NCBI GenBank assembly: GCA_037134455.1
Contig: JBAXME010000005.1
Coordinates: 1,159-65,158, forward strand
Source of the DNA: Synechococcaceae cyanobacterium ELA445
GTDB taxonomy: Bacteria > Cyanobacteriota > Cyanobacteriia > PCC-6307 > Cyanobiaceae
DNA: 64,000 nt
Reading direction: 5' to 3'
This document shows positions 17,420-48,238 of this stretch, piece by piece. Below the pieces are notes generated by a model, which saw only the letters and a list, made by a program, of their open reading frames with translations, was not told the origin of the DNA and ran no database searches. Position numbers and translations under genes: made by a program. Every line of letters begins with the position of its first letter. The stretch's first letter is position 1.

Positions 17420-17660
17420 AGCCTGGGTGGCCTCGAGAGGCCTGGTGTGGGGGATGAACAGATCCAAGGGGATCTCGCCCCGCTCCCCGCCGAAGGCGGA
17501 CCGCCGTCCTATCCGACCCGTCACCTACTGGAAGGGACGGGTGGAGATCTCCTCTCCGGCCAGGCCGTGGATCATGGATCAGCCCCAGCCCGGGTAGCAG
17601 GTCTCCAGGGCAGCGCCCACAACCTCCATGCTGCCGGTGCAGTTGAAGGAGGAGCGGGTG
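17420..17660 (-). pseudogene. frmA: Relic of S-(hydroxymethyl)glutathione dehydrogenase / class III ADH (C-terminal fragment)
   Basis: Minus frame reads [70 protein letters not shown]. This matches the FrmA signature GWG...[22 protein letters not shown]. Stops at 17579-17581 (TGA) and 17525-17527 (TAG). Confidence 0.85.
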
Positions 17661-41829: not shown

Positions 41830-42732
41830 ATGACCTCCAGGGTCACCAGCCGCCGCGAGATGCTCCGCTTGGTGTTGGGCGGTGGCCTGGTGGCAGGCCT
41901 GCTGCTGGGCCGGGAGGCCACCGCCCAGCGACTCGCTGCCAGTGCTGGCTCTGGAGACAGCCTGCATTGGCTGGCGGTGGCCGATACCGGTGGGGGCAAT
42001 CCCGAACAGCGGGCGGTGGGGGCGCGGATGGTGGCCGTCCACCGGGCCCGGCCCCTGGATCTCGTGGTTCTTGGGGGTGACAACATCTACCCCGACGGCG
42101 ACATCGCCCAGGTCAAGGAAAAGTTCACGATCCCCTACAAGGGCCTGCTGGAGGCCGGCGTACCGTTTCACGCCGTGCTGGGCAACCACGACATCCGCAC
42201 CGCCAACGGGGATCCCCAGATCGCCTATCCCCCCTTCGGCATGAAGGGGCGCTGGTACACCCTCCGGAAGGGCCCTGTCGAGTTTTTCATGATCGACACC
42301 AACGTGAACGCCAACTGGGGTCGCCAGCTCCCCTGGCTTCGGGAGGCCCTGGCCGCCAGCACCGCCCCCTGGAAGGTGGTGGTGGGTCACCACCCGATCT
42401 ATTCCTCCGGTTACTACGGCAATGACGAAGTGGCCAGGGACCGGCTTGCACCCCTCTTCCGCAGTGCCCGCGTGCAGCTCTACATCAACGGGCACGACCA
42501 CAACTACGAGCGCAGCAAGCCGATCCATGGCACCACCTACCTGGTGGTGGGAGGGGGTGGCGCCTACCTTCGCCCGATCGATCCAGGGGGGAACAGCGCC
42601 CGGGCCATCAGCGTGCACAGCTTTGCCGAGCTGACCGCCGGCAAGGACAGCCTCGAGATCCAGGCCTGGGACATCGATGGCCGTCCGATCGACCGGGCCG
42701 TGCTCGACCGCAGCGGCAAGGTGGTGAGCTGA
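41830..42732 (+). CDS. Tat-exported metallophosphoesterase, purple acid phosphatase-like
   Basis: SRREML signal; ADTG, GDNIY, GNHD, VVGHH and GHDH metal-ligand blocks. Confidence 0.88.
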   Translation: MTSRVTSRREMLRLVLGGGLVAGLLLGREATAQRLAASAGSGDSLHWLAVADTGGGNPEQRAVGARMVAVHRARPLDLVVLGGDNIYPDGDIAQVKEKFTIPYKGLLEAGVPFHAVLGNHDIRTANGDPQIAYPPFGMKGRWYTLRKGPVEFFMIDTNVNANWGRQLPWLREALAASTAPWKVVVGHHPIYSSGYYGNDEVARDRLAPLFRSARVQLYINGHDHNYERSKPIHGTTYLVVGGGGAYLRPIDPGGNSARAISVHSFAELTAGKDSLEIQAWDIDGRPIDRAVLDRSGKVVS

Positions 42733-42744
42733 CCTCCCTCCGGT

Positions 42745-44046
42745 TCAGCAATCCAAGGTGTGCTGACGCTCCCAGGCGCTCACCTGGCTGGTGGCCTGAC
42801 GCCACTCCCTGATCCGCAGGGTCTCGTAGGCAGAACAGAAGGGTTCCCCCAGGCTCTCTCGTAGTCGACCATCAGCTGCGAAGGCCATCAGGGCCTCGCC
42901 GAGGCTGGCGGGCAGGGGGCGCGCATGGATGGTGGCTCCGGGATCGGCGTAGCTGTCGTTGTCGGAGCGGGGGCCTGGATCGAGTTGGCGTTCGATGCCA
43001 TCCAGCCCCGCCGCCAGCACCGCCGCCTGCAGCAGGTAGGGGTTGGTGGAGCCATCGGGCAGCCGCAGCTCGATGCGCTGGTCGTCGGGGATGCGCACCA
43101 TGTGGGTGCGGTTGTTGCCGCTGTAGCTGATGCCCCCTGGGGACCAGGTGGACCCGGAGCTGGTGGGGGGGGCCGCCAGGCGCCGGTAGCTGTTGACCGT
43201 GGGATTGGTGAGGCAACTGAGCGCCGGAGCATGCTCCAGCAGGCCGGCGAGAAACTGATAGGCCAAGACCGAGAGACCCAGCTCGCCGCCGGCGTCATGG
43301 AAAAGGTTGCGCCCCTGGCCGTCCCAAAGGGAGAGGTGGGTGTGGCAACCGTTGCCCGTGAGGGCGCTGAAGGGCTTGGGCATGAAGGTGGCCCGGCCGC
43401 CATGGGTTTCCGCCAGGGTCTTGACCATCACCTTGAAGAAGGCATGGCGATCAGCGGTGACCAAGGCATCGTCGAACGTCCAGTTGAGCTCGAACTGGCC
43501 GTTGGCATCTTCGTGATCGGCCTGGTAAGGCCCCCAGCCCAGGCTGTCCATCGCCCCCACCAGTTGGGCAACCAGGGGCAGTTGGCGCATCAGGGCTAAC
43601 TGGTCGTAGCAGGGTTTGCTCTGCTGGTCGGCCCCATCGGCCAGGGCTTCTCCCGATGGATTGAGCAGGAAGAACTCCGCTTCCACGCCACTGCGCAAGT
43701 GGAACCCGAGCCGTTCAGCCCGCTCCAACTGCCGCTTGAGCACCTGGCGTGGGGACTGCTCCAGGGGCTGACCCTCCAGCAATAGATCGCCCGCCACCCA
43801 GGCCACCTCCGGCTGCCAGGGCAGGGGCATCAGGCTGGCTGGATCGGGGATGGCCAACACGTCTCCGTCGGCGGGGGAGAGATCCAGCCAGGCGGCAAAG
43901 CCCGCGAATCCCGCTCCACTCACCTCCATCTCGGCGATGGCCCGGGCGGGCACGAGCTTGGCCCGCTGCACGCCAAACAGATCCGTGAAGGAGACCAGAA
44001 AGTGGGCGATTCCGTTGGTCTGGGCGTAGGCCTGAAGGCGACTCAT
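42745..44046 (-). CDS. glnT: Glutamine synthetase-like ligase of the GlnT/GmaS (gamma-glutamyl-amine synthetase) group
   Basis: FLVSFTDLFGVQRAKLVPA, GAGFAGFAAWLD, GVEAEFF, DHEDANGQFE, FMPKPF..TGNGCHTH, NNRTHMVRIP and IELRLPD...NPYL. Confidence 0.88.
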   Translation of the reverse strand: MSRLQAYAQTNGIAHFLVSFTDLFGVQRAKLVPARAIAEMEVSGAGFAGFAAWLDLSPADGDVLAIPDPASLMPLPWQPEVAWVAGDLLLEGQPLEQSPRQVLKRQLERAERLGFHLRSGVEAEFFLLNPSGEALADGADQQSKPCYDQLALMRQLPLVAQLVGAMDSLGWGPYQADHEDANGQFELNWTFDDALVTADRHAFFKVMVKTLAETHGGRATFMPKPFSALTGNGCHTHLSLWDGQGRNLFHDAGGELGLSVLAYQFLAGLLEHAPALSCLTNPTVNSYRRLAAPPTSSGSTWSPGGISYSGNNRTHMVRIPDDQRIELRLPDGSTNPYLLQAAVLAAGLDGIERQLDPGPRSDNDSYADPGATIHARPLPASLGEALMAFAADGRLRESLGEPFCSAYETLRIREWRQATSQVSAWERQHTLDC

Positions 44047-44118
44047 GGAGGAGGTTGACGCAAGGGTGAGGTCAAGGCGGCCAGGATGGCGGAGGCAACG
44101 CCAACCGCTGGTAGGGGA

Positions 44119-45138
44119 TCAGACCAAGCCAGGCCCCCTCCAGAGACGATCCACCGCCGAACGCAGTTGGGTCTGCTCGACAGGGCTGTTGCGGGGATTA
44201 CCGGCCCGGTGGCCCAGCACCGATTCGATCACTTCGAAGTGGGCTCCGGGAATACGGGCCGCGTCGGCCGCCATGTCGTCGACGGTGAAATAGAGATCGT
44301 GGCGGCCCGCCAGCACGGAGGTGCGGGCCCTGATCGAGCCGAGGGCGGCCGCCAGATCGCCGTGGTGGGGGGCTCCGGCGGAGACGTCATGGGCCATCCA
44401 GGTGTCGATCATGGCGATCAGGTCGCGGGGGTCGTGGCGGCGGTAGGCCGGCAGCCACTGGGTCTCCACGTAGTCCTCCACCGCCATGGGGCCTGCGGTG
44501 AGGTGGTGCCCTTCGCCGTAGAAGCGTTGGCTGGCGGCCCAACTGGCGTAGATCAGGGCAAAGGTGCGCAACCCCTCGATCGGCTCGGCCTCGAAACCCG
44601 TGCCGGTCCAGTGGCGGTCTGCGGTGAGGGCCTGGCGCAGGCTGTGGAGGAACAGGCGGTTGTGGATGGCGGTGCGGGCGGTGCCACAGACGACGCAAAG
44701 CCGCTCCACCGCCTCAGGAACGTCCACGGCCCACTGGTACCCCTGCTGGCCCCCCATGGACCAGCCATAGATCAGGGCCAGACGCTCGATGCCGAACTGC
44801 TCCCACAACAGACGGCGCTGGGCGCGCACGTTGTCGCCGTGGCTGACCACCCAGCCAGATTCCGCCAGGCCCATGGCCCCGTGGCTGGGGCTGCTGGAGA
44901 GCCCGTTGCCCCACATGTCGACGATGACGATGAAGTGGCGCTGGGGGTCGAGCACCGGGCCCACCGCCCAGGCGATGTCGCCATGGTGAGCGCCGTAGGA
45001 GGTGGGGTAAAGCACCGCATTGGAGCGCTCCGCGTTCAGCTCGCCAAAGGTGCAGTAGCTGAGCTGGGCCTCCGCAATGGTGTGACCACAGGCCAGGGGG
45101 AAGGGGCCCAGTGCAAAACGGCCGCTGGTCCCACTCAC
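44119..45138 (-). CDS. Alpha/beta hydrolase, homoserine O-acetyltransferase (MetX)-like
   Basis: LSYCTFGELN, GWSMGG nucleophile elbow, HDLYF acid and GHRAG His. GTG start overlaps the desaturase TGA (GTGA). Confidence 0.85.
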   Translation of the reverse strand: MSGTSGRFALGPFPLACGHTIAEAQLSYCTFGELNAERSNAVLYPTSYGAHHGDIAWAVGPVLDPQRHFIVIVDMWGNGLSSSPSHGAMGLAESGWVVSHGDNVRAQRRLLWEQFGIERLALIYGWSMGGQQGYQWAVDVPEAVERLCVVCGTARTAIHNRLFLHSLRQALTADRHWTGTGFEAEPIEGLRTFALIYASWAASQRFYGEGHHLTAGPMAVEDYVETQWLPAYRRHDPRDLIAMIDTWMAHDVSAGAPHHGDLAAALGSIRARTSVLAGRHDLYFTVDDMAADAARIPGAHFEVIESVLGHRAGNPRNSPVEQTQLRSAVDRLWRGPGLV

Positions 45139-46070
45139 GCCGGCAGGGCCAGGCTCGGCAGCCGCTGCAGCAGGTCGCGGTGCACGGCCAAGTAGCCAGG
45201 ATCGCAGTGCTGGAGACGGGGGGCGATCAGGCCATGGGCGGCCGGAAGGGCATGGAAAGGAAGGGACGGATAGAGGTGGTGCTCGGCATGGAACGGCATG
45301 TTCCACATCAGCCAGCGGACTGGCGCCAAGGTGAGGGTGGTGCGGGTGTTGGCGGTGCCATTGCTGTCAAAGCTGCAGCCGGCGTGCTCCGCCAGCAGCA
45401 GGAAGCGCAGAAACGGCTGGCCGATGGCTAAGGGCAACAGCCAGTACCAGAGCAGAAAACCATTCCCCCCGATCAGGGACGCCAGTGCCACCAGGCCATA
45501 GGCGGCGAACTGGAGGCGCACGGAACGGCGCACCGAAACAATCACCTCAGGGTTGAGATAGGGGAGGTGCGAGACATCCCCGCCCAGCAGGAGGGTGAGA
45601 TGCCCCCGCAGCTTGCCGACCCACCAGTTCCAGCCGCCGATCTCGAGCCCGTACTCCCACAGGTTGGTGGGGGGCGCATCCTCCAGTTCAGGGTCCAGGC
45701 CGGGCAGGTGGGTGTAGCGGTGGTGCCACTGGTGGTAGCGGCGGTAGAAGGTGGCGTTGTAGAAGCTCAGCAGCCCGGCCAGCCAGGCGGCAGCGTCATT
45801 AAGACGCCGATCGGCGAAGGCGGTGCGATGACCGCACTCATGCATGGGCGCAAAGCAGGTGGCCAGGCAGACCCCAAGGGCGACCAAGGCCAACAGGCGC
45901 AAGGGCAGGGGAAGCGCGGCCTGCCCCCACACCACTCCGGCCCCAACGATCAGAGCCAGGTGGGAAACCAAGCGAAGGGAAGCGGGACCGTTGGCTGAGC
46001 GGTTGAGACCGGCCAGTTGCTCCTTGGTGAGCAACGGAAGTTCTGGGGCGGAAGGCAGGGTGGACGTCAT
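45135..46070 (-). CDS. Membrane di-iron fatty-acid-desaturase-superfamily enzyme (MocD-like)
   Basis: Three His boxes HECGH, HQWHH and HAEHH; TM helices. Confidence 0.88.
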   Translation of the reverse strand: MTSTLPSAPELPLLTKEQLAGLNRSANGPASLRLVSHLALIVGAGVVWGQAALPLPLRLLALVALGVCLATCFAPMHECGHRTAFADRRLNDAAAWLAGLLSFYNATFYRRYHQWHHRYTHLPGLDPELEDAPPTNLWEYGLEIGGWNWWVGKLRGHLTLLLGGDVSHLPYLNPEVIVSVRRSVRLQFAAYGLVALASLIGGNGFLLWYWLLPLAIGQPFLRFLLLAEHAGCSFDSNGTANTRTTLTLAPVRWLMWNMPFHAEHHLYPSLPFHALPAAHGLIAPRLQHCDPGYLAVHRDLLQRLPSLALPA

Positions 46071-46106
46071 GGCAGCTAGTTCATCAGACCGCCCGGGGGG
46101 CCTTCG

Positions 46107-46120
46107 GTAGACATCATCAC
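46107..46120 (-). promoter_or_regulatory. Putative NtcA site (GTG-N8-TAC variant)
   Basis: Minus strand GTG-ATGATGTC-TAC, 36 bp upstream of the desaturase ATG. The -10 at the expected distance (TGAACT) is imperfect. Confidence 0.4.
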
Positions 46121-46144
46121 CATTTGGAGGAGGTGACTGCCGCT

Positions 46145-47170
46145 TCAGCGAAATTTTTCCAGCACCACCTTGCCGATGCTGGTGTGGCTTTCCACCAGGG
46201 CATGGGCCCTGCGCAGGTGGAGCGCATCAATCGGCCCCAGCCGCTGGGCCAGGGTGCTGCGGATCCGCCCCTCCAGCACCAGCTGGGCCAGCCGCTCCAG
46301 CAACGCCCCCTGCCGATCCATGTCGGCGGTTTGAAACAGCGAACGGGTGAACATGAACTCCCAATGCAGGCTGAGGGATTTTTTCTTGAGCAGCCGCAGG
46401 TCGATGGCGGCGGGATCGGGATCATCGATCAGGGCCAGGGCCCCCTGGGGGGCGAGCAGATCGGCGAGCGCTGGGAAATGTCGATCGGTGTGGGTCAGGC
46501 TGACCACGTGCTGCACCGCATCGAAACCGAGCGCCTCCAGTTGGGGTCTGAGTGGTTGGTGATGGTCGATCACGTGGTGGGCCCCCAGGTCGCGGACCCA
46601 GGCCTGGCTCTCGGGCCGCGAGGCAGTGGCGATCACCGTGCGACCGGTGAGCTGGCGCAACAGTTGGATAGCGATGGAACCCACCCCGCCGGCGGCCCCT
46701 ACCACCAGTACGTGGTCCCCGCGGCCAAGGGCAGGGTCAGGTTCCAGACGCAACCGATCAAACAGCAGCTCCCAGGCGGTGATCGCCGTCAGGGGCAGGG
46801 CTGCCGCCTGGCCATCGTCCAGGCAGGTGGGGGCGACGGCGACGAGGCGCTCATCCACCCGATGCCATTCAGCGTTGCAGCCGTCGCGGTCGAGGGCGCC
46901 GGCGTACCAGACCCGATCCCCCGGCCTGAAACGGCTGACCCGCGCCCCCACCGCCTCCACGACGCCCACGGCATCCCAGCCCAGCACCTTCCAGCCCCCG
47001 GGCGCTGCCCCGTCGCGCCGTCGCACCTTGGTGTCCACAGGATTGACGGCCACGGCGGACACCCGCACCAGCAGATCGCGCTCCAAAGGGACGGGGCGGG
47101 GCAGCTCGATGTCCACCAAGGAACGGGGATCCTCGACGGGCAGGGGCTGGCCGTAGCCGACGGCGTGCAT
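46145..47170 (-). CDS. Medium-chain dehydrogenase/reductase (zinc-binding ADH family, quinone-oxidoreductase-like)
   Basis: VNPVDTKVR, LGWDAVG, AAALPLTAITAWELLFDRL, GAAGGVGS and HWEFMFTR; no Zn-binding cysteines seen. Confidence 0.9.
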   Translation of the reverse strand: MHAVGYGQPLPVEDPRSLVDIELPRPVPLERDLLVRVSAVAVNPVDTKVRRRDGAAPGGWKVLGWDAVGVVEAVGARVSRFRPGDRVWYAGALDRDGCNAEWHRVDERLVAVAPTCLDDGQAAALPLTAITAWELLFDRLRLEPDPALGRGDHVLVVGAAGGVGSIAIQLLRQLTGRTVIATASRPESQAWVRDLGAHHVIDHHQPLRPQLEALGFDAVQHVVSLTHTDRHFPALADLLAPQGALALIDDPDPAAIDLRLLKKKSLSLHWEFMFTRSLFQTADMDRQGALLERLAQLVLEGRIRSTLAQRLGPIDALHLRRAHALVESHTSIGKVVLEKFR

Positions 47171-47173
47171 GGC

Positions 47174-48238
47174 TCAGCGGGCAAGGGCAGGTCTGGAGCT
47201 GGCGGTGGGCAGACCTGCCGCCAAGAGCTGGCGGTGAATGGCAGTGGCCTCGCGTTGGCGCTCGATTCCCCCTGGCTCCGGAGGCTGGTCCAGGGATGCT
47301 TGCCACTCTCCGAGGAGCCCCTCGGCGTCAAGCGGGCGATCCAGATCCGCGCAGGGGCAACCAATCGCCTCGGCGGCGGCGCGCACCTTGGGGTCATAGC
47401 TGAGGGCTGCGCAGGGGGCTCCGGCCAGGGCGGCGAGGATCAAGCCATGCAGACGCATGGCGATCACCAGACCCGCCCGCTCAAACAGCACCTGGGCCTC
47501 GCCCGGACTCTGGGCCGCCACCGCCACGCTTCTCCGGGCAAGGCGCTCACTCAGCAGCCCCCGGGACCGCAACTCCTCGAGCAGGTCCCTGTCCTGATCG
47601 AGATGGAAGGGAAGCCAGTGCACAGGCCGATCGGCCTGCTCGGCCAACCTATCCAGGGCATCCAGCAGCAGCAGCCAGCCGTCATGGGTCAACAGCGGAC
47701 TGAATCGCCAACACAACAGGATCGCCCCCCCTTCCCCCTGCCAGGAACCCTGGGGCAGGCTCCAGACCGGGTCGCTGCCCTGTAGGGAGACCACCCCCCA
47801 GCGGGCCGCCAGGGCGGCGGAGGCAGGATCACGCCAGCTGATGCCACTGGCCAGGGGGAGAAGCCAACGCACCAGCGTGCGACTGCGGAAACGCTTGAGC
47901 GGACCAAGGCCCTGGCCCCAGAGCAGCACGGGCTTGGCCCCTAACCGGGCGGCCACGATCAGCAGCGCGTAATAGAGGAGGCTGCGGAAGCTGGTGGCGT
48001 CCTGCAGCAGGCTGCCCCCACCCAGCACCAGCGCATCGCAATGCTGGAGGGCCGCCAGCACGGCCCCGAGGCTGCGGCGGGGGCAGGTGGCCACCGCGAA
48101 ACGGGCCTCCACCTGTGCCTGGTCATGGGCGGTGACGATGGGCTCGTGGCCTGGCGGCAGTTGCTCCAGCAGGGCCGCCAGCAGGGCGTCATCACCGAGG
48201 TTGTGCTCGCCGTAGTAGCCGCAGAGCAGAGGCCGCAT
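47174..48238 (-). CDS. csaB: Polysaccharide pyruvyl transferase CsaB
   Basis: GYYGEHNLGDDALL, LGGGSLLQDATS, MRLHGLILA and SYDPKV. Confidence 0.92.
   Translation of the reverse strand: MRPLLCGYYGEHNLGDDALLAALLEQLPPGHEPIVTAHDQAQVEARFAVATCPRRSLGAVLAALQHCDALVLGGGSLLQDATSFRSLLYYALLIVAARLGAKPVLLWGQGLGPLKRFRSRTLVRWLLPLASGISWRDPASAALAARWGVVSLQGSDPVWSLPQGSWQGEGGAILLCWRFSPLLTHDGWLLLLDALDRLAEQADRPVHWLPFHLDQDRDLLEELRSRGLLSERLARRSVAVAAQSPGEAQVLFERAGLVIAMRLHGLILAALAGAPCAALSYDPKVRAAAEAIGCPCADLDRPLDAEGLLGEWQASLDQPPEPGGIERQREATAIHRQLLAAGLPTASSRPALAR

Follow-up and report, generated by a model that had tools for sequence, protein, structure and literature searches.

The window analyzed here is a 64-kb stretch of high-GC (~67%) picocyanobacterial DNA whose near relatives are named Cyanobium, Synechococcus, or Vulcanococcus. 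It carries three co-oriented minus-strand genes at 42745-46070, which encode, in this order, an oxygenase, a hydrolase, and a ligase. This trio is a real conserved unit, and its arrangement is not due to chance, because 63 of 80 species-level loci show this gene order. Our tentative reading, to which we give somewhat less than an even chance, is that the trio is a nitrogen-stress-induced module by which the cell draws nitrogen from small primary alkylamines, most likely methylamine and then ethylamine, with no need for the N-methylglutamate pathway. An earlier note on this DNA had proposed a compact ligase-oxygenase-hydrolase pathway that takes nitrogen from an amine. That proposal appears to fit the synteny, the co-occurrence of the genes, a plasmid copy, NtcA-type boxes, and a parallel system with a Rieske oxygenase; methylamine, which the note had set aside, is a leading candidate substrate. 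The three genes are as follows.

45135-46070, minus strand: membrane di-iron oxygenase of the fatty acid desaturase/AlkB superfamily, 311 amino acids, with HECGH, HQWHH, and HAEHH
44119-45138, minus strand: MekB/CgHle-type (homoserine-acetyltransferase-like) serine esterase, 339 amino acids, GTG start, with Ser127, Asp281, and His310
42745-44046, minus strand: GmaS-type gamma-glutamyl-alkylamide synthetase, 433 amino acids, elsewhere annotated as glnT or type III glutamate-ammonia ligase

The gene calls agree with the layout given in the earlier note. The three genes are co-oriented, the TGA of the oxygenase (45137-45135) overlaps the GTG of the hydrolase (45138-45136) so that the strand reads GTGA from 45138 to 45135, and a spacer of 72 bp (44047-44118) separates the hydrolase from the ligase. 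The family assignments also hold (FA_desaturase at 128 bits, Abhydrolase_1/PRK07581 at 382 bits, and TIGR03105 at 611 bits), and all three histidine boxes that had been listed are found in the oxygenase. A longer hydrolase open reading frame (ORF) starting at 45306 was considered and rejected as an in-frame artifact. The GTG start is preferred because the PRK07581 model begins at residue 63 of the long form and orthologs align from residue 1 to 10 of the 339-amino-acid form.

The ligase is the best defined of the three proteins. In comparisons with whole-protein hidden Markov models (HMMs), it scored 610.9 bits against TIGR03105, "type III glutamate-ammonia ligase" (cutoff, 469.6). Its scores against other glutamine synthetase (GS) models were 275 bits for GlnA type I (cutoff, 429) and 250 bits for GGputSyn, the gamma-glutamylputrescine synthetase (cutoff, 650). 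The best solved relative is PDB 7CQL, the gamma-glutamylmethylamide synthetase RhGmaS of Rhodovulum sp. 12E13, at 586 bits and 61.5% identity over 429 columns. The RhGmaS structure paper names the residues that bind ATP, glutamate, Mg2+, and methylamine and gives two hallmarks that distinguish GmaS from GS, namely, that Ala48' occupies the position of the ammonium-binding Asp of GS and Trp300 that of the catalytic Glu of the Glu flap (PMC7948447). All 17 of the positions named for RhGmaS are conserved in the window ligase, and 16 of them are identical, the exception being Tyr191, which is replaced by Phe. Both hallmarks are present: Ala48 and Trp301 of the ligase align with Ala48 and Trp300 of RhGmaS (the equivalent of GS Asp50' being Ala48'). 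The methylamine-pocket and catalytic residues Lys30', Tyr147, Gln175, Asp177, Glu179, Glu186, Asn188, and Arg312 are identical to those of 7CQL. These positions, hallmarks included, are kept in every cyanobacterial ortholog checked. In a maximum likelihood tree of 15 sequences, which was used with the HMM scores in place of a full GlnA/PuuA/IpuC/AtdA1 phylogeny, the window ligase, its cyanobacterial orthologs, and RhGmaS form one clade (support, 94/98), and two paralog groups fall outside it.

These data bear out the assignment of the ligase to the GlnT/GmaS group and point to a GmaS-type enzyme, an ortholog-level relative of RhGmaS, that should make gamma-glutamyl-methylamide or -ethylamide. 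Because the ligase is close to RhGmaS and its amine pocket is intact, methylamine or ethylamine is the leading candidate substrate. The Km values of RhGmaS are 27 μM for methylamine, 58 μM for ethylamine, 1.8 mM for propylamine, and 8.7 mM for NH4+ (PMC7948447). The earlier note had set methylamine aside. Given a ligase with this degree of identity to RhGmaS and an intact pocket, that step is not sustained, and only the downstream N-methylglutamate route is missing. As the same note had reported, no mgs or mgd genes lie within the window. In the whole genome, which is 99.97% complete, a separate mgsC-type GXGXG gene is absent, since PF01493 occurs only in the 1,553-amino-acid GOGAT ORF. A SoxD search of the genome returned no match, and the control was likewise silent. 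Because the genome has no N-methylglutamate pathway, another downstream route is needed for the GmaS product. The sole match in the genome to TIGR02818, the glutathione-dependent formaldehyde dehydrogenase, is a 63-bit fragment interrupted by TGA and TAG at 17420-17660 of the window (C5:18623-18811), and the frmA pseudogene that had been noted there is thus confirmed.

The hydrolase is predicted to be a competent serine esterase of a branch known for small acyl esters, because it can be assigned to PRK07581/MekB and its catalytic triad is invariant. It scored 381.6 bits against PRK07581 (cutoff, 332) and was below the MetX models, with 106.8 bits against TIGR01392 (cutoff, 500) and 102.9 bits against NF001209 (cutoff, 331). 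A profile built from 12 hydrolase orthologs matched PDB entries 5E4Y and 5D6O at 277 and 272 bits, respectively, versus at most 114 bits for true MetX enzymes. The AlphaFold2 model of the hydrolase (predicted local distance difference test [pLDDT] score, 86) matches "acetyl esterase MekB" with a template modeling (TM) score of 0.92 and 34% identity and also matches the Corynebacterium glutamicum "acetylester hydrolase." The alignments for structure prediction were built without plasmid-record sequences. Ser127 (in GWSMGG), Asp281, and His310 are invariant among orthologs. A role as a MetX homoserine O-acetyltransferase in methionine synthesis was rejected, the protein being far below every MetX acetyl- or succinyltransferase HMM cutoff. 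The name "MetX-like hydrolase" in the earlier note was therefore right as to hydrolase; the protein is more exactly a MekB/CgHle-type acetyl esterase, and the acetyltransferase identity falls away on the HMM scores and the structural match.

The oxygenase matches Pfam FA_desaturase (PF00487) at 128 bits (cutoff, 29.7), and its histidine boxes are invariant across orthologs. Its best NCBIfam match is the GntB arginine gamma-hydroxylase, which aligns over the full length at 48.6 bits, far under the cutoff of 380. The equivalogs for acyl-lipid desaturases (DesA/DesB) and CrtR gave local matches only (30.7, 20.8, and 21.5 bits versus cutoffs of 500, 500, and 475). A search of the PDB with the sequence profile returned no match, and the fold search alone was informative. 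The AlphaFold2 model (pLDDT, 85) has a helical membrane fold, and the nearest solved fold is that of subunit 8XKS_K of the Chlamydomonas Ycf2/Orf2971-FtsHi complex (TM score, 0.72), followed by AlkB (8SBB/8F6T), with a Foldseek probability of 1.00. Homologs with ~31% identity in Rhizobium and Sinorhizobium plasmid records adjoin a "MocE family 2Fe-2S ferredoxin" and an FAD oxidoreductase, which is the MocDEF arrangement. Ruegeria homologs (39% identity) adjoin a Rieske-type ferredoxin, amino acid ABC transporter genes, and sarcosine oxidase genes. MocD-type homologs have MocE/F as their redox partners and probably O-demethylate rhizopine, a small hydrophilic compound. The family clearly includes enzymes that act on small polar substrates, and we propose that the window protein is an N-alkyl (alpha-carbon) oxygenase.

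Synteny was assessed in 80 species-representative cyanobacterial loci retrieved with the esterase. The oxygenase lies directly 5' of the esterase in ~73 of these, and GmaS lies directly 3' in ~67. The trio is contiguous in 63 loci, and all three genes occur within the locus in 66; several of the loci without a full trio end at contig boundaries. The order oxygenase-esterase-ligase is kept in nearly all loci, and the 80 loci come from picocyanobacteria, Leptolyngbya, Chamaesiphon, Pseudanabaena, Snowella, Aphanothece, Xenococcus, and others. The three genes are also adjacent to one another in the sampled genome G050. In Leptolyngbya sp. BL0902, plasmid NZ_CP046158 carries the trio alone, between a replication gene and parA/parB.

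The genes also co-occur where they are not adjacent. Among 61 relatives, an oxygenase ortholog was found in 20, the esterase in the same 20, and a GmaS of at least 55% identity in all 20 (unlinked in six). A second sample covered 251 genomes from the whole phylum; 11 of these have an esterase ortholog, and each of the 11 has both partners. Taken together, the two samples contain 26 distinct esterase-bearing genomes, none of which lacks the oxygenase or a GmaS, linked or not, of at least 55% identity. The earlier note had left co-occurrence elsewhere to be looked for, and it was found both in this full set of esterase-bearing genomes and in the contiguous loci. A strict three-way dependence is contradicted by the desaturase, whose ortholog is found alone in some Nostocales.

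The trio is decaying in the Nostocales genome G272 (L124; G272:C2, 5946-8562), where an oxygenase gene, an esterase remnant of ~60 codons, and GmaS remain. Other Nostocales (L121-L126) keep the oxygenase alone, two of them with in-frame stops, and the neighbors are unrelated. No conserved neighbor was found for the solo oxygenase genes in Nostocales and others, and the unlinked gmaS genes of five genomes have housekeeping neighbors only, with no extra partner.

Two further features lie 5' of the oxygenase gene.

46107-46120, minus strand: putative NtcA-type box GTGATGATGTCTAC, one mismatch to GTA-N8-TAC, 50 nucleotides 5' of the oxygenase ATG, marking the putative nitrogen-regulated promoter of the trio
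46145-47170, minus strand: zinc alcohol dehydrogenase (Zn-ADH)-family (adh_fam_1) oxidoreductase, TIGR02817 497 bits, a variable neighbor directly upstream of the trio

The box, which reads from 46120 to 46107 in the direction of transcription, has counterparts in other genomes. When boxes were defined as GTA-N8-TAC with at most one mismatch within 200 nucleotides 5' of a gene, they were found 5' of the oxygenase in 43 of 74 orthologous loci versus 59 of the 577 remaining ORFs in those loci (10%). Perfect boxes precede the oxygenase in 7 of the 74 loci (versus 2.3% of controls), and of the 11 gmaS genes that are unlinked or solo, 5 also have one. Orthologs in Chamaesiphon and Leptolyngbya are among those with a perfect box. 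In Synechococcus elongatus PCC 7942, glnT falls in the NtcA-2 iModulon (PMC11420160). The trio is probably under NtcA-type nitrogen control, and the putative boxes, together with the iModulon placement, would fit a nitrogen-scavenging role.

Under the proposed pathway, the GmaS-type ligase would use ATP to join the amine to glutamate, yielding N5-methyl-glutamine (gamma-glutamylmethylamide), a step that is well supported by homology. The oxygenase, with reduced ferredoxin as the presumed donor, would hydroxylate the carbon next to the amide nitrogen to give a carbinolamide, and a second oxidation, by the oxygenase itself or by a neighboring alcohol dehydrogenase (ADH), may give an N-formyl or N-acetyl imide. 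The MekB-type esterase would then resolve the oxidized intermediate to glutamine plus formate or acetate or, from the carbinolamide, formaldehyde or acetaldehyde, and the glutamine would enter GOGAT. Such an imide, being an activated acyl compound, could be cleaved by an acetyl esterase of the MekB type. The second oxidation could be supplied by ADH genes, which stand beside the window trio and beside the proteobacterial gene pairs described below, and a route to formate would fit the absence of an intact formaldehyde dehydrogenase. Carbinolamides are fairly stable, and peptide amidation needs a dedicated lyase for them. Amt permeases transport methylammonium, and uptake would use them. Because mgs and mgd are lacking, oxidation and removal of the N-alkyl carbon would be the only means by which the two linked enzymes could recover the nitrogen. 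The oxygenase may act once or twice, the esterase may serve as a lyase or a hydrolase, and the ligase may come first or last.

A parallel system is found in genome G037, where a cluster (L028:3727-13026) encodes an arginase-family hydrolase, a HypA-like protein, a GlnT-family paralog, a HypB-like protein, an NMT1-type ABC transporter, a Rieske oxygenase, and an esterase paralog. The GlnT-family paralog is 43% identical to the window ligase, and the esterase paralog is 40% identical to the window esterase. The best model for the Rieske oxygenase is GbcA, a glycine betaine N-demethylase. The amine pocket of the GlnT-family paralog is changed (Q175S, N188D, and W189F), and the protein groups in the tree with 9QUR, the other solved "glutamate-methylamine ligase." The window genome itself carries a cluster with the GlnT paralog on another contig (C27; L030:2806-6633), and a further example is found at L083:91-5756. 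In 17 Cyanobium loci, a guanidine-hydrolase-like cluster without an esterase of its own lies ~5 kb 5' of the trio. From its domain content, we take the arginase, HypA/B, and transporter part to resemble the guanidine hydrolase system GdmH of Synechocystis. The cluster of the GlnT paralog and the Rieske oxygenase may handle methylated guanidines. The guanidine paper makes no mention of the ligase or the Rieske gene (PMC12704784).

Because a ligase and the same esterase family recur in G037 with a nonhomologous oxygenase of the demethylase type, this cluster appears to be the strongest comparative argument for a ligate-oxidize-hydrolyze sequence. A more specific form of the proposal, in which N5-alkyl-glutamine from GmaS is oxidatively dealkylated by the membrane di-iron enzyme and finished to glutamine by the MekB-type esterase, and in which the sister Rieske system does likewise for methylated guanidines, is possible, and we put it forward with considerable reserve.

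The esterase and the oxygenase also occur as a pair without the ligase. On Paroceanicella profunda pD4M1A (L033, 5791-8912) and Cupriavidus basilensis pRK1-2 (L038, 5060-12373), an esterase gene (40 to 43% identity) is next to an oxygenase gene (37%). Both pairs lie near an Fe-ADH gene and a TetR regulator gene, and Cupriavidus additionally has rubredoxin and an FAD reductase. This proteobacterial plasmid set fits an uncharacterized AlkB-like three-step cassette without a ligase, with the sequence hydroxylate-dehydrogenate-hydrolyze. Because the proteobacterial pairs occur without a ligase, the esterase-oxygenase pair is the older core, extending beyond cyanobacteria, and cyanobacteria coupled it to GmaS. 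The spread outside the cyanobacteria is drawn from the plasmid collection; a contig scan with a mixed alignment returned almost only cyanobacteria.

Several findings weigh against the alkylamine module. The co-occurrence counts are no formal statistic, because the genomes are related and not independent. The gene order oxygenase-esterase-ligase would suit a pathway with the ligase last equally well. Neither the Paroceanicella nor the Cupriavidus pair is accompanied by a GS-like gene, and the pair can therefore do without a glutamyl substrate. We know of no di-iron desaturase-family enzyme that oxidizes an N-alkyl amide. An ortholog of the oxygenase occurs without the esterase or GmaS in ~8 of the 251 genomes, mainly Nostocales and in some cases with stop codons, and the oxygenase may for this reason have another substrate. 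Should the trio release formaldehyde, the genome has no intact FrmA to deal with it. Finally, the window's own NtcA-type box deviates from the consensus at one position, and a box at this spacing would leave the transcript nearly leaderless.

Some of these points are shared by a different account of the trio, which we consider unlikely. Here, the oxygenase and the esterase would act first, on a larger compound that is N-methylated or esterified, such as an N-methyl amide, carbamate, secondary amine, or methylated osmolyte, and would release methylamine from it; GmaS would only trap or detoxify the amine, with gamma-glutamylmethylamide being stored or used by an unlinked enzyme. The gene order in nearly all loci and the proteobacterial pairs that lack a ligase are both consistent with such a scheme, as is the hydrolysis of small esters by MekB-type enzymes. 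In the 17 Cyanobium loci, the transporter, Ni-hydrolase, and Rieske oxygenase near the trio could feed it methylated guanidines. What argues against it is that the nitrogen would stay locked in gamma-glutamylmethylamide in a genome without mgs or mgd. In addition, the plasmid-borne trio has no further partner, and the unlinked gmaS genes keep company with housekeeping genes only.

It is improbable that the ligase is instead an extra glutamine synthetase (GlnT) for nitrogen starvation whose neighbors are unrelated to it and co-located through shared NtcA control. The PGAP name is type III glutamate-ammonia ligase, the iModulon paper places glnT among the glutamine synthetases (PMC11420160), and RhGmaS turns over NH4+ with a millimolar Km (PMC7948447). 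Against these points, the window ligase has exactly the GmaS substitutions for the ammonium-binding Asp and for the flap Glu. Unrelated neighbors are likewise hard to reconcile with the presence of GmaS in every sampled esterase-bearing genome, with the trio that travels together on a plasmid, and with a parallel cluster of ligase, oxygenase, and esterase.

We assign a similarly low probability to a biosynthetic module that, under nitrogen stress, would make a small molecule (a signal or osmolyte, for example) that is either a modified gamma-glutamyl compound or hydroxylated and acetyl-cycled. GntB, the nearest curated model for the oxygenase, is a biosynthetic enzyme, and enzymes of the MetX fold can be acyltransferases. 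The esterase, however, belongs to the hydrolytic MekB/CgHle branch, far below the MetX cutoffs. No exporter, nonribosomal peptide synthetase/polyketide synthase, or pyridoxal phosphate-dependent partner was found in the 80 loci, and both the GmaS pocket and the probable NtcA-type control speak for scavenging. Lipid remodeling, in which membrane acyl chains would be the target of the desaturase-like protein, the hydrolase would be a lipase or acyl esterase, and the ligase would be a bystander, is very improbable: the protein is an integral membrane member of Pfam FA_desaturase and is named "fatty acid desaturase" in the sources, but it scores only 21 to 31 bits, in local matches, against lipid-desaturase equivalogs with cutoffs of 475 to 500, the genome has separate canonical desaturase homologs, and the gene is tightly linked to GmaS and, in proteobacteria, accompanied by rubredoxin, ADH, and TetR.

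The alkylamine module that we favor is probably a variant of known glutamylation-based amine pathways, with a route that has itself not yet been described. With the N-methylglutamate pathway (GmaS-MgsABC-MgdABCD) of Rhodovulum, Ruegeria, and Methylocella, it shares the first enzyme, which falls in the same clade and has an identical amine pocket. It differs in that the genome has neither the synthase nor the dehydrogenase of that pathway, the genes linked to the ligase are instead those of a membrane di-iron oxygenase and an esterase of the MekB type, and the module belongs to a phototroph and is apparently controlled by NtcA. The Ipu (isopropylamine), Atd/Tdn/Npa (aniline and 1-naphthylamine) (PMC11335346), and Puu (putrescine) systems follow the same glutamylate-oxidize-hydrolyze logic that we propose for the trio. 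They use P450 or Rieske oxygenases and GATase-type hydrolases, whereas the trio has a desaturase-family di-iron enzyme and a MetX-fold esterase, and its ligase belongs to the GmaS lineage and not to that of PuuA, IpuC, and AtdA1 (GGputSyn, 250 bits versus a cutoff of 650).

The esterase and the oxygenase likewise have characterized counterparts in other settings. The window esterase shares its subfamily, triad, and fold with MekB of Pseudomonas veronii (5E4Y/5EFZ) and CgHle of C. glutamicum (5D6O/5D7B), with TM scores of 0.88 to 0.93 and 32 to 35% identity. MekB follows a Baeyer-Villiger monooxygenase in methyl ketone degradation; unlike MekB, the window esterase is partnered by a di-iron oxygenase and GmaS. 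MocD/MocE/MocF of rhizobia and GntB of guanitoxin biosynthesis provide examples of desaturase-superfamily membrane enzymes that act on small polar nitrogenous compounds, as proposed for the window oxygenase. In contrast to MocDEF, no MocE/F-type redox partner is found in the cyanobacterial loci, and homologs closer than the MocD type (37 to 39% identity, Paroceanicella and Cupriavidus) pair with the esterase. A route with an AlkB-type hydroxylase, an ADH, and an esterase converts methyl tert-butyl ether to tert-butyl formate and then to the alcohol and formate. The chemistry would be common to that route and the trio: hydroxylation of a methyl group beside a heteroatom, oxidation to a formyl group, and hydrolysis. 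The heteroatom is an ether oxygen in the one and would be the glutamine amide nitrogen in the other, and the cyanobacterial loci usually lack an ADH.

In the literature searched, we found no description of this gene combination or of a cyanobacterial fate for gamma-glutamylmethylamide; the earlier note likewise knew of no described cyanobacterial pathway with this combination of enzymes. Dissolved organic nitrogen includes a widespread pool of methylamines. Cyanobacteria that carry gmaS but lack the remainder of the pathway are on record; in Trichodesmium, for example, GmaS is not accompanied by any of the later genes (bioRxiv 10.1101/2021.03.10.434842). In field work, gmaS serves as a marker of methylamine-using heterotrophs, and it is reported in ~23% of surface-ocean genomes (PMC7948447). 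If the module works as proposed, it would explain the "orphan" gmaS of phototrophs, a puzzle for which no explanation had been given. Surveys based on gmaS would then also count oxygenic phototrophs as methylamine consumers, and gmaS counts would have to be read differently. Phototrophs would gain direct access to alkylamine nitrogen, and the desaturase/AlkB superfamily would gain a new reaction class. The trio would also be a compact and portable cassette for amine utilization or theanine-type biocatalysis.

The surroundings of the trio are less constant. On its 5' side, the Zn-ADH-family gene and then csaB lie on the same strand; on its 3' side, genes for a metallophosphoesterase, prxQ, and htpG are convergent. 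When 42400-47400 was scanned for promoters and terminators, no sigma-70-like site emerged, and the sole hairpin, inside the oxygenase gene, was at chance level. The Zn-ADH gene stands between csaB and the trio only here and in ~4 Vulcanococcus-like loci; elsewhere, csaB directly precedes the trio. The NtcA-type box sits downstream of the Zn-ADH gene, that is, between that gene and the oxygenase gene. The Zn-ADH lies outside the conserved core, and an accessory role is possible.

Copies outside the phylum were seen in a set of metagenome-assembled genomes (L104, L108, and L114). Contigs labeled Alphaproteobacteria carry an esterase of 50% identity beside Zn-ADH-family genes and a second alpha/beta hydrolase gene, with no oxygenase, and a contig labeled Myxococcales carries a full trio at 54 to 63% identity. 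These copies reflect either lateral transfer or misbinning.

Extra genes occasionally accompany the esterase-oxygenase pair. An OsmC-like protein is encoded between the oxygenase and the esterase in one locus (L014:5911-6420), a divergent creatininase-family gene is found in another (L017:6354-7076), and a creatinase/M24-like gene lies beside a GS-like gene of 30% identity in a third (L029:1576-2748). These neighbors may hint at related nitrogen-compound substrates.

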